Positions 51,251 to 57,948 are shown, counted from the first letter of the stretch. The stretch is 63,673 bases of DNA from Elusimicrobia bacterium LH_S2 (GCA_023660015.1 JAGXOG010000001.1:1-63673), one strand, 5' to 3'. Notes: generated from the sequence alone by a model not told the origin. Numbers and translations: made by a program.

Positions 51251-51550
51251 ATGTTAAATAAGGGTATTTTAAAGTTAACAGCCGATACTTTTGTGGATAT
51301 TATCAGCGAAAGAAATATTTCGCCGAAAATTTTGGATAATAAAAGTTATAAATCCGGTTTTTTTCTGCAAAAACCGTTTTCAGTAAACCGCACAACATTA
51401 AAAAACCGCAAAAAACTTATAACCGAAAGATATTTGTTAGACCTTATTGCCGAGGGAAGAAAAAGGGTAAGTTTTAATACCGATGTAATAATTACTCCGG
51501 CGGCAAGGTTAATTATTGAGGAAGGAAAAATAAAGATAGATGAACAATAG
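51251..51550 (+). CDS. Small hypothetical protein; C-terminal motif shared with the TPI N-terminal extension
   Basis: ORF from the track. RKRVSFNTDVIITPAARLIIEEGKIKIDE resembles RKKVVAHSASLVSPYARETALRFGIEIVE in the tpiA extension. It overlaps the next gene by 11 nt. Confidence 0.5.
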   Translation: MLNKGILKLTADTFVDIISERNISPKILDNKSYKSGFFLQKPFSVNRTTLKNRKKLITERYLLDLIAEGRKRVSFNTDVIITPAARLIIEEGKIKIDEQ

Positions 51551-52139
51551 CAATGATATAACTTTAAAGGACTATATAGACAAAGTCGCATCCTCGGCCG
51601 GCACACCCGGCGGCGGGAATGTTATATCTACGGTAAATTCCCTTGCTGCTTCCCTGATGCTTATGTCATTAAGAATAGTAATATTAAAAAAAAATAGCGC
51701 TTCCAAATCCGGCCTTGAGCTTGAAAAAGAACTCATAGTTATTAAAGAGGAATCTCTCGAACTTGCCGAAGCCGACAGCCGGGAATTTAAAGAGGTAATG
51801 AAAAACTGGTCGGGAGGCGGTCATCGCCTGGAAGAATCGCTAAAAGGCGCTGCGATGGTTTCGCTGGAAATTGCCCGAAAAGCTGTTGGCCTTATAGAGC
51901 TCATAGAGGCCCAGGATTTAGACGTTTATAAAAATATTATTACAGATGTAACCATATCTTTCCGGCTTGCCGAATCAGCTTTTCACGGAGGTATTGCCAA
52001 TTGTATTATAAACGCCGGGGCCTTAAGTAAAGAAAAAAATAAAGCAGAAATACTTAAATTGCAAAACGATATTGAAAAAAGGTATGCCCGAATAGCGAAT
52101 AGACTTACCGGTAAGCTTGATTTAATAATTAAAAGATGA
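51540..52139 (+). CDS. Cyclodeaminase/cyclohydrolase-family protein (FTCD C-terminal-domain-like)
   Basis: YIDKVASSAGTPGGGNVISTVNSLAASLMLM is the hallmark ..PtPGGGs.aa..gal.aaL..MV motif of the FTCD_C family. The protein is all-helical and about 200 aa. Confidence 0.7.
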   Translation: MNNSNDITLKDYIDKVASSAGTPGGGNVISTVNSLAASLMLMSLRIVILKKNSASKSGLELEKELIVIKEESLELAEADSREFKEVMKNWSGGGHRLEESLKGAAMVSLEIARKAVGLIELIEAQDLDVYKNIITDVTISFRLAESAFHGGIANCIINAGALSKEKNKAEILKLQNDIEKRYARIANRLTGKLDLIIKR

Positions 52140-53191
52140 CTATAAATAAATGGCAGGTTGTTAATGACCCTTCCCCGAAGTGGGCAAAAAGAATCCGGGC
52201 CGATGTAGTTGCCGACTCCAAAGAGGAAATCTTGGAGGCAATGGAGAACTACCAATATCCGTTTGGGACGGTTTTAAAATCTAAAAATAAAGATTATAAT
52301 TACAGTTTCTTTATCTATGAAGGAGATGACGAAGGCGGAAAAGAGTTAAAACAGGTTTTATCCGGCAAAAAACCTGAAGTTTCGCCGGTTTCTGAGGAAA
52401 CAGAAGATGAATCTGAACCCGGCCACGAAGGAATAAAGCCTGTAGAAGAAACAAAATCTGGATCTGAATCGGTATCCGAAGAGCTTGAATCTGAAGAAAA
52501 ATCAAAGCCTGAGGTTTCCCCGGCGCCCGAAGAAATAAAACCTGAAATTGCTTCTCCCACAGAAGAAGAAAAAATTAAAAATGAAAGATTTGAGCAAGAA
52601 GCGGATATAGTAGAAAAGCCCGGCGATAAAGCTTCCGCAAATAAAGAAGAGCTTCCGGATAAGGGGGAGGATGGATCTGTAATCAAAACCCCGGCACCTG
52701 CCGAAGAAAGAAAGACTCATCAAGTTAAAGAAAAGGATGAAAAATCACCTGAAGATAATAAAGAACCCCGACCCGATGAAGTCGGTAAAAAGGTTTCCCG
52801 GGTTATAAAATTGGGAGTTATCTATTCGCTTCTTTATGAAGACGTAAAAATATCTACAAAACAGCAGCCCGAAGGCGAAGAACCCTTAACAGAAAAGGTC
52901 TATGATATATTTATAAATAATTTAAACGAGATGGTTGCTAAACAGAATATTAAAGTTCTTTTTAAACTTTCTTATCAGATAGGTTATGACGGCCTTCCTG
53001 ACAAAGAAAAGGTAATGGAAGAACAAAAAGAAGCTGATGTATTAGTTATAATTGACGAAAAAGAGGGGACTGAAAAGCTTGAAAATGTTTTTACCCCGGC
53101 GAATATTGCAGTTTATAGTATGCCGGTTAAAGATATCAATAAGGATTACGAATACCTGAATCTTGCTGCGGATATGGCTTTAAGGATTTAA
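52136..53191 (+). CDS. Acidic, low-complexity-linker protein sharing N- and C-terminal modules with the downstream DnaA-like protein
   Basis: ATGA overlap with the upstream gene. A central E/K/P/S-rich stretch of about 170 aa separates the ends. The end modules align with those of the 53193 protein (see findings). Confidence 0.65.
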   Translation: MTINKWQVVNDPSPKWAKRIRADVVADSKEEILEAMENYQYPFGTVLKSKNKDYNYSFFIYEGDDEGGKELKQVLSGKKPEVSPVSEETEDESEPGHEGIKPVEETKSGSESVSEELESEEKSKPEVSPAPEEIKPEIASPTEEEKIKNERFEQEADIVEKPGDKASANKEELPDKGEDGSVIKTPAPAEERKTHQVKEKDEKSPEDNKEPRPDEVGKKVSRVIKLGVIYSLLYEDVKISTKQQPEGEEPLTEKVYDIFINNLNEMVAKQNIKVLFKLSYQIGYDGLPDKEKVMEEQKEADVLVIIDEKEGTEKLENVFTPANIAVYSMPVKDINKDYEYLNLAADMALRI

Positions 53192-53192
53192 T

Positions 53193-55199
53193 ATGGCTTT
53201 AAAAAATTATGCTATAGAGCCGGCTCCCAGTCCAAAAGACAAGAACCGGTATAAGTTAAGCATAGCCGGTTCCGAAAAAGATGTAAATAAGCTGGTTAAA
53301 CAGTTAAGCAGTATAAGCAGCCGGCCTTTTCCTTCTCCGGACGATAAATACGGATGGTCTCTTTTTTTGTATAACTTAAAAGAAAGTGCTAAAAATAAAA
53401 TAACCAGCGAACTTGACAAGGTTATAAAAAATAAAAAAAATATCCCAGCCGAAAAACAGAAAAAATCGCGGGATGTTAAAAGTAAATCTACCTCCTCCGG
53501 TAATAATATTTTGTACAGGAGCGAGTTAAAAAAGGATTATACCTTTGATAAATTTATAGTGGGAGCCAATACGCGATTTACTTATGCGGCCTGTAAGGCC
53601 GTCGCAAACAAACCGGGCAAAAACTATAACCCGCTCTTTATATACGGCGGTGTAGGCCTTGGAAAAACCCATCTTATACAGGCGATAGGTCACCATGTAA
53701 AAGAAAATTTTTCGGAGATGAAAATAGAATATATTGCTTGCAGCAAATTTATAAATGAAGTAGTGGCGGCCATTGAAAAAGGAACTATAAATCTATTAAG
53801 AAATAAATTTAAAAATGTAGATTTACTCCTTATAGATGACATAGAGTTTCTTGAACAGTCAGAGTCAACCCAGGAAGAATTTTTTAACATATTTAATGAA
53901 ATGCACGAGGTAGAAAAGCAGATAGTCATTACATCGGATAAACCCCCCAAGAAACTGGTTACCCTTGAGGACCGGTTGAAATCCAGGTTTGAATGGGGGC
54001 TGACGACCGATGTGAAATCCCCCAATTTTGAAACCAGAAAGGCAATACTTAAGAAGAAAGCCGCGGAAGCTAACTTGGAGCTATCGGACCAGATTAATGA
54101 TTTTATTGCCGAAAGGCTGACTTCCAATATCAGAGAGCTAGAAGGAATAATAAACAGGATAGTCGCATACCAGGAACTTTCCGAAGACAATATACAGATA
54201 AATATAAGTATTGTTAAAAATATAATGCGAAATATCCTTCCTGAAGAAGAGAAGGAAGAAGAAAGCCGCCCGGAAAAAGAAAATTCAACAACCGGAGCCC
54301 GCCAGGGGGAAGGCCGAAAGGCGGCCCAATATCCCGGTTACAACCCGCCACCGCCGGTTCCCGGATACCAGCAACAGCAGTACGGAAATAACTGTCCCCG
54401 GTGCAGAAGTCCACTGCGATATATTCCCCAGTTTAAGAGGTGGTATTGCGATAACTGCGGCGTCTATACAGACCCGGCGCCCGGCGCGCCGCTTCCGCCG
54501 GGAAATTATACCGGAGATTATCCGCAGCCGTCTCCATCCCCGCCGCCCCCGCCTCCGTCAAAGTCTCAAACCGCTGCTTCAAGGCCGTGTCCCAACTGTA
54601 GCGCGGAGCTTAAATATATAGATGAATATGACCAGTATTACTGTCCAAACTGTAAAAAATACGAGCAGGAGTTACTCGAAGAAAATGACACTCCGCGAAA
54701 AACTAAGAGTAAAGAAAAGGCGCCGGAGCCGAAGAAGCCTTCTTCAAAGGATTCAAAAGACAAAGAAGAAAATATTGAAGATATTATAATAGGAGAGAAA
54801 AAAGAAGACACCAGGGTTATTAAGGCCGGTTATTTTATCGCCGAAGGAGACCAGAAATTAGCAATAGATATAGCAAACAGGTTAAGTAAGATTGCCCGGC
54901 GCAAAAATATAAAGTTCTATCTGAAAACTCATTTTGCTCATTTTTATCCTAAAAAAGCAAAGTTAAATTATGCGAAGTTTGCCCATATAACTAAAAATAA
55001 CAATGCAGACATTGTTTTATGTCTTGAACCGCCTTCTAATGGTAAGACTGCCCCCGAGGAGTTTAAAGAAGAATTAAGCGCCGCTCTGGATAAAGAAAAC
55101 CTTCCCTATGCCTTTTTGCCCCAGAAGAAGATGAAGGACAGCGATGCGTTAAATTTAATGCTGGATATAGCTATATGCGCAAAGAAAAGAACTAAATAA
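53193..55199 (+). CDS. DnaA-derived AAA+ ATPase lacking DnaA domains I and IV; Pro-rich region with two zinc ribbons and a novel C-terminal module
   Basis: The full DnaA domain III signature is present: YTFDKFIVGANTRFTYAA, NPLFIYGGVGLGKTHL (Walker A), LLLIDDIEFL (Walker B), QIVITSDKPP, RLKSRFEWGL and SNIRELEG. No ..PRQ.AMYL...GGRDHTTV domain IV is present. Instead it has CPRCRSPLRYIPQFKRWYCDNCGVY and CPNCSAELKYIDEYDQYYCPNCKKY. Confidence 0.8.
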   Translation: MALKNYAIEPAPSPKDKNRYKLSIAGSEKDVNKLVKQLSSISSRPFPSPDDKYGWSLFLYNLKESAKNKITSELDKVIKNKKNIPAEKQKKSRDVKSKSTSSGNNILYRSELKKDYTFDKFIVGANTRFTYAACKAVANKPGKNYNPLFIYGGVGLGKTHLIQAIGHHVKENFSEMKIEYIACSKFINEVVAAIEKGTINLLRNKFKNVDLLLIDDIEFLEQSESTQEEFFNIFNEMHEVEKQIVITSDKPPKKLVTLEDRLKSRFEWGLTTDVKSPNFETRKAILKKKAAEANLELSDQINDFIAERLTSNIRELEGIINRIVAYQELSEDNIQINISIVKNIMRNILPEEEKEEESRPEKENSTTGARQGEGRKAAQYPGYNPPPPVPGYQQQQYGNNCPRCRSPLRYIPQFKRWYCDNCGVYTDPAPGAPLPPGNYTGDYPQPSPSPPPPPPSKSQTAASRPCPNCSAELKYIDEYDQYYCPNCKKYEQELLEENDTPRKTKSKEKAPEPKKPSSKDSKDKEENIEDIIIGEKKEDTRVIKAGYFIAEGDQKLAIDIANRLSKIARRKNIKFYLKTHFAHFYPKKAKLNYAKFAHITKNNNADIVLCLEPPSNGKTAPEEFKEELSAALDKENLPYAFLPQKKMKDSDALNLMLDIAICAKKRTK

Positions 55200-55203
55200 A
55201 ATT

Positions 55204-57117
55204 ATGTTTTTAAGTTTTGGATATATCATCATTTTAACAGTTTCTCTGTTGCTGGCGCTAACCTCCAACGGAACTGCGATTTCAGCTGGGCTCTATCTTA
55301 TAGCGCTTATTACAGTAGTTTTGTTTATAAAAAGGCTGGTAATAAAAAGAGAAATTTATTTTACGCATCTGTGGCAGAATATATATAAGTCGGCATCTAC
55401 AAATATTAATTATTCTTCTGATTTCGGACTGAAGAGAAATTTAGGTCATATATTAAATGATTTATGCGAACTTACCTCTATAACCGGGGCCTGGGTTATA
55501 ATGAAAAATATAGATGGAAATTACAGAATTGAAGTTCAGCGGGGAAGAATTAATCTGTCATATAACCTTGGGATTAAGGATCTATCCGAGTATATTGAAG
55601 GTAATATTAAGGAGTTTGAAAAACCGCTTATCAAAGATCATTTGCCTCCGATGATTAACAGCAAAAAAAAAGGACTATGCCTTCATATACCGATAAGCCG
55701 GGGTAAACTTATACGGGGCGCAGTGACAGTAACTACAACTTCAAAGAGATATTTTAAAAAGCACAGAGTTAATAATTTTGTCAATATAGCAAAATTAATA
55801 GAGCAGCTCTACGAAAATGCCGACCGGAATAATCAACTTCAGAAAGTAGTCAGAAAAGTTAATGAGAAAGTCGATGTGGCCACCGATGAACTTACAAAAA
55901 CAAATATTAGGCTTATAGACAGGGTTAAAGAATTTAAATCTTTGTATGATATATCATTAAGGGTTATAAATGCCGAAACTACCGCCGAGGCGGTGAAGGT
56001 TATATTTAAAAAGATAAAAGTTATTCTGGGAGCTGAAAAGAGTATGTTTTTCGAAAATAGAGACGGAGAGTTCATCCTCAGATATGTAAGTGATGAAAAC
56101 TCTGAGAAAACTTTAAAAGAAAAAACTTTGCCTTTCTCGATCTTGCCCAAAAAAAAGGGAATAATATTAAACGACACTACAAAAGATAAAGATTTAAATC
56201 ATATAACCAAGCAGTATAATTTAAACTATATAATGATTGCTCCGGTAAGAGCCGGGGAAACAATAAAGGGGGTAATTATTACAGGTGTTAAAGAGGGAGG
56301 GGAATTTTCCGGGAGGGATGTTGAACTGCTGGAGATCTATTCAAACCAGTTAGGTGAATATATTGACAGGAAAGGTCTCATGGACAAGGTCATCAGGGAT
56401 AATAAAAGATTAAAAGAGCTAAATGAGGTTAAAGATAAATTTATATCCTTGATATCCCATGAGCTTAGAACACCGCTTACCAATATCAAGGGGTTTGGAG
56501 AACTGCTTTTAGGTGGCGATGTCGGTCAAGTTAATTCTGACCAGGAAAATTTTTTAAAGACGATTTTAAGGTCAACTTTCAAATTGGAAACTACAATTAA
56601 TAACATAATAGAAGTTACTGATTTTAAAAAACACGAAGTAAAGTTAGAAAAAGAAAGTGTAAAATGGGAAGAATTTATAAAAAGCAGTGTTGAAGAGTTT
56701 AGAGAAATTTTGGAGAAGAAGGAAATTAATTGTACAATAAAAGTTGATAGTTCAATAGGGATGTTATATGTTGACCGCAAGCGAGTAAAGAAAGTATTTG
56801 ATAACTTAATAAGCAATGCCGTAAAGTTTATGGGGAAGAAGGGGGATATAACCATAACTTCCGAGAAACAAGGGGAAAAAGTAAAGACGGTTATAAAGGA
56901 TACCGGCATAGGAATTAAAGAATCAATGAAAGATAAAGTCTTTGAGGGTTTTACCCGGGCTGATGAAACCCTAACCAGGAATTCCGACGGGCTGGGGCTG
57001 GGATTAACTTTAGTTAAATATATTATTGGAAACCATGGGGGCAATATTGATATAAAATCAACCCAAGGTAAAGGTACTGAGGTGATTTTTAGTTTACCGG
57101 CAGGGAGGTCAGCTTAA
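55204..57117 (+). CDS. Membrane sensor histidine kinase with GAF-like domains
   Basis: Two N-terminal TM helices. The H-box is ISLISHELRTPLTNIKG. N/G boxes are ..DNLISNAVKF.., DTGIGI and GLGLGLTLVKYII..HGG. Confidence 0.85.
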   Translation: MFLSFGYIIILTVSLLLALTSNGTAISAGLYLIALITVVLFIKRLVIKREIYFTHLWQNIYKSASTNINYSSDFGLKRNLGHILNDLCELTSITGAWVIMKNIDGNYRIEVQRGRINLSYNLGIKDLSEYIEGNIKEFEKPLIKDHLPPMINSKKKGLCLHIPISRGKLIRGAVTVTTTSKRYFKKHRVNNFVNIAKLIEQLYENADRNNQLQKVVRKVNEKVDVATDELTKTNIRLIDRVKEFKSLYDISLRVINAETTAEAVKVIFKKIKVILGAEKSMFFENRDGEFILRYVSDENSEKTLKEKTLPFSILPKKKGIILNDTTKDKDLNHITKQYNLNYIMIAPVRAGETIKGVIITGVKEGGEFSGRDVELLEIYSNQLGEYIDRKGLMDKVIRDNKRLKELNEVKDKFISLISHELRTPLTNIKGFGELLLGGDVGQVNSDQENFLKTILRSTFKLETTINNIIEVTDFKKHEVKLEKESVKWEEFIKSSVEEFREILEKKEINCTIKVDSSIGMLYVDRKRVKKVFDNLISNAVKFMGKKGDITITSEKQGEKVKTVIKDTGIGIKESMKDKVFEGFTRADETLTRNSDGLGLGLTLVKYIIGNHGGNIDIKSTQGKGTEVIFSLPAGRSA

Positions 57118-57590
57118 TGGCAGACAAACAGTATCGCCAAGATGCAAAGAAAAAGCGTCCGCCGCTTCTGCTTCTAATAGACCCGGACAGGGAGGAAGTC
57201 AAGCTAATAAAGAATTATTTTAAAAAGGAAAGTTTCCGGTGCGTAATAGCATATGATGGAATAAGGGGGATTGTGCATGCTCTTAACGATAAACCTGATC
57301 TTATAATTACCGAACTCGTAGTTCCCAGGTTAAGCGGATATGATATAATAAAAAGGCTGCAGATGGTTTCAACCCGGACAAAAAACATTCCGATTGTAAT
57401 ATTAACCGGAAAGACTATGGATGCGAAGTCAAAAAAAAGGCTGACTGATTTAGAAGAGAATGTCGTTGAATTTATGCCTAAACCGATAACCCGGGGGTCA
57501 TTTATGGTTAAGATACATAAGATATTGAAGACCGGAAAAACAGAGAGAAAAATACTTGACAGACATGAAAAGGAGAGGCGAAATGAATAA
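57117..57590 (+). CDS. Receiver-domain protein with Glu in place of the phospho-acceptor Asp (pseudo-receiver)
   Basis: It has the CheY-like layout LLLIDPD...PDLIITELVVPRLSGYD...IVILTGK...MPKPI. The acceptor position is E66 (GAA at 57312-57314). The start overlaps the kinase stop. Confidence 0.7.
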   Translation: MADKQYRQDAKKKRPPLLLLIDPDREEVKLIKNYFKKESFRCVIAYDGIRGIVHALNDKPDLIITELVVPRLSGYDIIKRLQMVSTRTKNIPIVILTGKTMDAKSKKRLTDLEENVVEFMPKPITRGSFMVKIHKILKTGKTERKILDRHEKERRNE

Positions 57591-57948
57591 AATAATGATA
57601 GTCGAAGATGACAACACTACCATAAAGCTTTTAAAATATTTACTGGGAAAAAACAACTATGAAGTAGCAGTATGTGAAAACGGAAAAATTGCCGTAGATT
57701 CAATTATGGACGAAGATCCCGATTTAATATTAATGGATATTATGATGCCGGAGATGGACGGACTTGAGGCGACAGAAAAAATAAGGGATATAAATAAATT
57801 TTCAGATACGCCTATAATAATGCTTTCCGCGCTGGGGCAGGAAATAGAAGTTGCTAAAGGATTAAAGGCCGGTGCAGACGGTTATGTAGTTAAACCTTTT
57901 GATACCCAATCCCTTGTAAGACAGATCAAAGAAAAGCTCTCTTCTTGA
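57583..57948 (+). CDS. Single-domain CheY-like response regulator
   Basis: KIMIVEDDNTTIKLL...DLILMDIMMPEMDGLEA...PIIMLSALG...GADGYVVKPF. An AAAGGAGAGG SD lies upstream of the ATG at 57583; the track ORF opens at 57556. Confidence 0.85.
   Translation: MNKIMIVEDDNTTIKLLKYLLGKNNYEVAVCENGKIAVDSIMDEDPDLILMDIMMPEMDGLEATEKIRDINKFSDTPIIMLSALGQEIEVAKGLKAGADGYVVKPFDTQSLVRQIKEKLSS

Follow-up and report, generated by a model that had tools for sequence, protein, structure and literature searches.

Organization of the locus

The DNA analyzed here, called the window throughout, is a stretch of 63,673 nucleotides from Elusimicrobia bacterium LH_S2 (GCA_023660015.1, JAGXOG010000001.1:1-63673). It carries two adjacent genes, whose products (52136-53191 and 53193-55199) we call A and B. 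B is a DnaA-derived ATPase with a distinct module at either end, and A, encoded directly upstream, is a conserved, functional and selected paralogue of B that keeps both end modules and has no ATPase (Table 1). The Shine-Dalgarno sequence of B (AAGGA) sits within the 3' end of A, and the FTCD_C gene upstream overlaps the start of A as ATGA.

Table 1. Features of the A-B locus and of the genes that follow it (window coordinates; aa, amino acids; pI, isoelectric point).
Feature	Position	Strand	Composition or basis
Gene A, predicted 351-aa ATPase-less paralogue, pI 4.6	52136..53191	+	N module, disordered linker, C module
A N module, aa 1-78	52136..52369	+	order strand, strand, helix, strand, helix
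A linker, aa 79-216	52370..52783	+	disordered, 61% E/K/P/S, net charge -23, fast-evolving
A C module, aa 217-351	52784..53188	+	four strand-helix units and a hairpin insert
Stop codon of A (TAA), one base, start codon of B (ATG)	53189..53195	+	sequence read
Gene B, 668-aa DnaA-derived ATPase, pI 9.0	53193..55199	+	N module, DnaA domain III, two Zn ribbons, C module
B N module, aa 1-81	53193..53435	+	
B AAA+ core, aa 112-348	53526..54236	+	Pfam, motif location
Two CxxC...CxxC zinc ribbons, aa 401-422 and 466-487, in a Pro-rich region	54393..54653	+	within B
B C module, aa 530-668	54780..55196	+	strand-helix order as in the A C module
Signalling genes downstream of B, whole span	55204..57948	+	Pfam
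GAF histidine kinase	55204-57117	+	
157-aa receiver, Glu at the phospho-acceptor site	57117-57590	+	
CheY-like receiver	57556-57948	+	

The ends of A and B are homologous

The original prediction had aligned the N-terminal and C-terminal segments of A with those of B, had described A as a modular paralogue of the B termini, and had proposed an HHalign comparison as one check. Both reading frames stand at the coordinates given, programs recovered the same alignments, and the relationship is borne out by hhalign, by hidden Markov models (HMMs) applied across the two families and by predicted structures. Orthologues for these comparisons were gathered through identity look-ups, searches of genomes and scans of contigs, those of A being found in Elusimicrobia metagenome-assembled genomes (MAGs) at 42-46% identity. 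With 10 A-type and 21-22 B-type sequences, hhalign joins the N modules over residues 1-76 of A and 1-75 of B (probability 98.6%, E = 7.8e-16) and the C modules over residues 218-351 of A and 540-665 of B (probability 98.4%, E = 7.4e-15); the crossed controls, N against C, are not significant (E = 0.07-0.29). Smaller families of 4-5 sequences each gave E = 5e-8 for the N modules and E = 1e-3 for the C modules. A module HMM built from either family recognizes its counterpart in every protein of the other family, always at the corresponding end, and the joint alignments of A and B modules are nearly gapless. In the N module, P12, R19 and Y61 are invariant over all A and B sequences; in the C module, an L, an N and a D of the last helix are invariant in both families and one Tyr is nearly so.

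The single pair of proteins is less informative, with an identity of only 16-24% and a BLASTP search that reports the C-terminal match alone (E = 0.003) and misses the N-terminal one. Smith-Waterman alignment of the same pair scored 52 for the N ends against 26.1 +/- 5.1 for shuffled sequences (z = 5.1) and 68 for the C ends against 30.1 +/- 5.0 (z = 7.5), with 0/2000 shuffles as high in either case, while the crossed controls scored 40 and 26, values matched by 27/2000 and 1356/2000 shuffles. The similarity of the ends, on whose significance in alignment or permutation the prediction had been staked, is thus significant by both routes. A chance or compositional origin, for which the low identity and the missed BLASTP match might be cited, is refuted by profile E-values near 1e-15, by the silent crossed controls and by the shuffles. 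On these sequence comparisons A is a true paralogue of the B ends, with both modules homologous.

Predicted structure and identity of the two modules

Structures were predicted with AlphaFold for A from an alignment of 8 sequences and for B from 19 sequences. The N module (~78 residues) is predicted with good local confidence in A (predicted local distance difference test score, pLDDT, of 76-91), with strands at 5-10 and 20-25, a helix at 29-38, a strand at 56-60 and a helix at 66-76, and likewise in B (pLDDT 85-90), with strands at 3-10 and 20-26, a helix at 28-38, a strand at 55-59 and a helix at 64-82. The C module (~120-135 residues) is Rossmann-like and comprises four strand-helix units in both A (218-351, pLDDT about 87-92) and B (541-664, pLDDT 83-92); the hairpin of 18-20 residues inserted after strand 1 of the A module is specific to the window's order. 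For each module, the order of predicted secondary structure elements is identical between A and B.

Neither module has a family or a PDB-profile match, the C module resembles known folds only generically, and both modules are therefore uncatalogued. A as a whole has no Pfam, NCBIfam or PADLOC family, and the isolated modules have no match in Pfam or NCBIfam (25 N modules were tested against Pfam). Profile searches of PDB sequences returned noise only, with a TLR2 TIR domain as the best match of the C module (E = 0.04), and an F420 oxidoreductase also among the noise matches (E = 0.55); the N module had no match under 0.5. In a Foldseek search the A model had no PDB match at E <= 0.001 (best E = 7e-3) and none in a viral library. 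The list contains lumazine/riboflavin synthases, PTS EIIB (TM-score by target 0.52-0.62) and the Argonaute MID domain (0.45), all of which are generic three-layer alpha/beta sandwiches with four parallel strands. With the B model, Foldseek matched only DnaA and other AAA+ proteins.

Several specific identities were tried and rejected. A divergent DnaA domain I was rejected as the identity of the N module, since hhalign against domain I of the canonical DnaA of relatives gave E = 0.28-0.34 and PF11638 is not matched. For the C module, a degenerate receiver is contradicted by an hhalign comparison of its profile with 22 neighboring receivers (E = 0.2), and a TIR domain by the weakness of the TLR2 profile match, the absence of TIR domains from the top 50 Foldseek matches and the lack of a Pfam TIR match. 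The fold is similar to that of cellobiose-type PTS EIIB (1iib, TM-score 0.62), but the catalytic Cys is not conserved: a Cys after strand 1 occurs in some lineages only, and in neither A nor B of the window. From the invariant P, R and Y of the N module and the Y, L, N and D of the C module, which are kept in both families, we infer that both are docking domains with a specific site.

B carries a DnaA-type ATPase without DnaA ends

The AAA+ core of B matches PF00308 with E = 2.9e-65 (residues 112-273), and against TIGR00362 B covers profile positions 57-345 of 437 only, with a score under the cut-off. All motifs of the core are intact, namely Walker A (152-161), Walker B (211-220), sensor 1 (246-252), the box VII Arg (261-270), sensor 2 (311-318) and the initiator-specific two-helix insert (185-206), and the ATPase motif residues are invariant in 19 B sequences. 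The central 240 residues are 52% identical to domain III of Bacillus subtilis DnaA (PDB 8bv3), and DnaA is a far better match to B (E = 1e-77) than Hda structures are (E = 2e-13). Canonical DnaA of the order to which B belongs is less similar to the core (47-48%) than the B. subtilis domain is.

Domain IV (PF08299) was found neither in B nor anywhere in the window's genome, which is 66.6% complete and in which B is the sole DnaA ATPase match. Domain I (PF11638) was not found in B or A, and A holds no DnaA-derived domain: its Pfam and NCBIfam searches were blank, and an HMM of the B AAA+ core had no match in A-type proteins. A canonical DnaA with domain IV is present in 37/41 relatives, a genome of the same genus included, and in a second deep lineage the canonical gene stands in the classical dnaA-dnaN arrangement. 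B is an additional paralogue that accompanies an ordinary dnaA-dnaN, and not the sole initiator. Zinc ribbons number 2, 1 or 0 among B-type proteins, and are therefore a lineage-specific rather than a core element; most B-type proteins outside the window's lineages have none. Some apparently complete B-type proteins (P0045, P0048, P0057, P0058 and P0071) begin at the AAA+ core and end in the C module, with no N module.

Distribution and evolution of the gene pair

By label, all relatives come from Elusimicrobia/Elusimicrobiota MAGs, apart from two labelled "Deltaproteobacteria" and "Sumerlaeota". The C module was found in 26/26 genomes of a sample of the phylum and in 0/15 outside it, and full-length B in about 24/26; B belongs to the core genes of this Elusimicrobia-type phylum, and the A-B cassette is specific to such bacteria. 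The C module is rare overall, with 98 matches among 1.84 billion cluster representatives. When these 98 were classified by architecture together with five B-type proteins found earlier, 47 of the 103 had the DnaA AAA+ core, 16 had N and C modules without AAA+, and 40 were short fragments or unclassified; no third architecture with the C module was seen among them.

The survey of co-occurrence that had been proposed gave an asymmetric answer in place of a strict pairing: A always occurs with B, but B often occurs without A. An A-type gene is present in 12-13 of the 26 phylum genomes, and in all 12 that could be judged the next gene downstream of it is B (two of the 12 have an assembly break within B, and there the contig with A ends in the B N module). 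The two genes are 1 nucleotide apart in the window, 1 nucleotide or less apart or overlapping in most loci, and 0-1 nucleotide apart in loci from metagenomes. A and B are translationally coupled, and A was never found apart from B. Intact A reading frames are found in 12 genomes from at least three deep lineages, and more in the metagenome loci. These loci come from a scan seeded with a B-only alignment; a scan from an A-only C-module alignment matched 600 patterns, among which there was no true relative. In a near-identical copy of the same-genus locus (JGI contig Ga0534203_011299, L006), the C-terminal tail of A diverges as if frameshifted and the B call lacks the N-terminal ~70 residues, anomalies that are likely sequencing or assembly errors.

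Within the window's order A is missing from 11/14 genomes, the sister genus included, and there FTCD_C is followed directly by B. In a tree of C modules, a single, weakly supported branch (54/88) separates A-type from B-type sequences, and the A modules are not nested within the B modules of the same genomes. One ancient duplication, after which A was lost repeatedly, would fit this pattern.

Gene neighborhood and the signalling link

Directly after B, a GAF histidine kinase and/or receivers are encoded in 19/19 genome loci and 13/13 metagenome loci. These kinase and receiver genes are the only part of the B neighborhood that is constant over every lineage examined, and their stop and start codons often overlap. 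Among them is a single-domain receiver of ~160 residues with Glu in place of the phospho-acceptor Asp (DLIITEL; 57117-57590 in the window; also L056, L059-L061 and L066-L074). It is 52-58% identical between the two deep lineages, with the Asp-to-Glu change conserved, and is far more conserved than the modules of A or B. It was found only in genomes that bear A (8 genomes have the two together, 4 have A alone and one could not be decided); as related genomes are not independent observations, this co-occurrence is a lead and not a result.

Upstream, the surroundings differ between lineages. In the window's order the (A)-B genes are preceded by an SPU-type microcompartment locus, an open reading frame of 94-99 aa and FTCD_C. 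The last two occupy 51251-52139 of the window, the frame having no family and FTCD_C being of cyclodeaminase type, and both are missing from the other deep lineage, which has a Crp-like regulator gene and a P-II protein gene upstream instead; the microcompartment link is therefore lineage-specific. The paper that describes the SPU microcompartment class does not mention the A and B genes (PMC11585597). A defence function was also considered and rejected, as PADLOC left A unmatched and gave B no more than marginal matches to sub-domains (best E = 3e-5, in the AAA+ region), and a single-copy, syntenic, phylum-wide gene is unlike the pattern of defence islands.

Proposed role of A

We favor a model in which A is an accessory modulator of B, and put its probability as a whole at about 0.6. 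The invariant polar and aromatic residues in both families indicate that the shared modules probably bind the same thing, which could be one another, in homotypic contacts (N-N or C-C), or some partner that they have in common. In that case A would occupy the contacts of the B ends, and would either co-assemble with B oligomers or compete with B for the shared partner; either way, it would tune the output of a B ATP switch that receives two-component input. A may dock onto B or onto the partners of B via its modules, and heteromeric A-B assembly through them, as the original prediction had suggested, is possible, although the phyletic pattern weakens the simple form of that idea. The constant position of A immediately upstream of B supports a link between the two, and strict adjacency with tight coupling across deep lineages argues for a joint function, while the half of the genomes that do without A indicates that its part is accessory.

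Several points weigh against this model. Contact between A and B is conjectural, and the predicted TM-scores of the A and B models (0.44 and 0.33) make them uninformative on how the modules pack against one another. The 11 genomes of the window's order that lack A are 82-100% complete, and there the N and C modules of B match those of other genomes in conservation and in their invariant residues. Since B keeps both modules in these genomes, the modules must have a job that does not need A, and heteromerization is apparently neither their primary nor their only role. The complementary charge of A (pI 4.6) and B (pI 9.0) is limited to the window's genus, the adjacency of the genes could reflect a simple tandem duplication, and the functions ascribed to A and B both derive from architecture and context.

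Some of these points lend themselves to a different account, in which A acts independently of B as a separate sensor or scaffold whose modules bind the same small molecule or nucleic acid, for instance in a MID-like pocket for a 5' end or a nucleotide, and in which adjacency is a relic of tandem duplication. The retention of modules in B where A is missing would fit such an account, as would the invariant polar residues of A and B, which suggest a specific site and not just a fold. Argonaute MID domains also appear among the Foldseek matches (2yha, 2xdy, 5ki6 and 4olb; E = 0.012-0.03, probability 0.93-0.99). However, the stand-alone MID entry, 2xdy, reaches a TM-score of only 0.45 to the C module and ranks below lumazine synthase and PTS EIIB, nothing stands at E <= 0.001, and none of 28 C-module members has a Pfam MID match at E <= 1. 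The 5'-phosphate pocket of Argonaute MID is marked by a motif of the Y-K-Q-K type, and no conserved Lys or Gln was seen following the near-invariant Tyr in the C-module alignment. The data allow a MID likeness of the predicted C module as a generic resemblance of fold only. Strict adjacency and tight coupling, kept over deep lineages, also speak against independent action, which we regard as the less probable account, though the strongest of the alternatives.

A more elaborate proposal, and a speculative one, is that A and B might form, together with the two receivers (the Glu-type pseudo-receiver and the CheY-like one), a previously unknown, phylum-specific signalling system in which phosphorylation controls a B filament and A caps, bridges or titrates the ends of B. 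The filament would be a DnaA-type ATP filament, and might co-polymerize with true DnaA at the origin.

The linker of A suggests yet another mechanism. The original prediction had seen the middle of B replaced in A by an E/K/P/S-rich linker; the composition holds (26% E, 13% K, 12% P and 10% S), but the length is about 138 residues and not ~170. Disorder, for which a prediction had been advised, is indicated by pLDDT < 50 over residues 81-217 of the AlphaFold model. A was also called acidic, which is true of the window's genus (linker net charge -20 to -43) but not of A in general, as linkers of the orthologues range from 35 to 242 residues in length and from -43 to +2 in net charge. The window's linker contains no tandem repeat at the DNA level. 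In the orthologue of GCA_034723895.1 (L003:6001-7158) the linker holds a near-perfect duplication of ~48 residues, EEKPVY.IKEEGGPSEEDREEAEPPAKPAESSEEIEADIYEEGPAEEE occurring twice, which shows linker growth by repeat expansion. An acidic-aromatic motif, [VIL][IL]E[KQT]F[ED], occurs 1-4 times per linker in another lineage (L038-L043, L056-L058) and may be a docking motif; A of the window has a related ERFE motif, IKNERFEQE, at residues 147-155 (52574-52600).

The strong negative charge in the window's genus, set against a basic B whose N and C modules are positively charged, could mean that A acts chiefly through its linker, which would neutralize B by mimicking DNA or by scaffolding a condensate, with the modules as mere anchors. 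We consider this improbable, because neither acidity nor length is conserved: linkers of other orthologues carry net charges of +2, +2 and -1, by which acidity was rejected as a conserved feature of A, and one linker is merely 35 residues long. Conservation lies in the modules (59-67% identity within the genus) and not in the linker (27%). Nor did the B linkers of genomes lacking A show a systematic change toward a compensating acidic linker. The same contrast of conservation makes it most improbable that A is a decaying, functionless remnant of a duplicated B, as its loss from most genomes of the window's order and its low-complexity middle might suggest; the intact reading frames over deep lineages and in metagenome loci, the retained invariant residues and the confidently folded modules all speak against decay.

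Relation to known systems and significance

A short protein of Alphaproteobacteria, HdaB, resembles DnaA domain IV and titrates the DnaA paralogue HdaA (PMC7049699). As a short accessory derivative without ATPase activity in a DnaA-paralogue system, HdaB is the nearest functional analogy to A. The two differ in that HdaB resembles domain IV, whereas A has neither PF08299 nor any other DnaA-derived part, and consists of two uncatalogued modules and a long disordered linker, paralogous to the B ends and with a role that we infer. Hda/HdaA (TIGR03420) is a regulator reduced to domain III of DnaA and has, like B, lost domain IV; Hda keeps the ATPase and loses the ends, while A keeps the ends and loses the ATPase. 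Canonical DnaA (TIGR00362; PF11638, PF00308 and PF08299; PDB 8btg and 8bv3) shares domain III with B, with all motifs and the insert, but B is without domains I and IV and A is without DnaA content. A lies outside the HdaB, Hda and DnaA families.

Modular paralogue pairs that co-assemble are known elsewhere, as in DnaD and DnaB of B. subtilis, with their shared DDBH1 and DDBH2, and in CheW and CheA-P5. There too, shared interaction domains let the partners join one assembly; the folds and families are unrelated, and the analogy is one of principle alone. To our knowledge, the DnaA-family regulators described so far are ATPase-only paralogues (Hda) or single-domain fragments (HdaB), and a literature search found nothing that describes the A-B pair in searchable papers.

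An uncultured phylum thus carries a second, near-canonical DnaA motor in which the DNA- and partner-binding ends are swapped for two uncatalogued domains, and half of its genomes add a twin built from those ends alone. Because this amounts to a natural dissection, with the ends present both with and without the motor, the role of the two new domains can be tested directly. That a histidine kinase and/or receivers always accompany B suggests a switch of the DnaA type under signal control. Should A, B and the receivers indeed form a phylum-specific signalling system, they would represent a new coupling of replication initiation, or of another DnaA-filament activity, to environmental signals.

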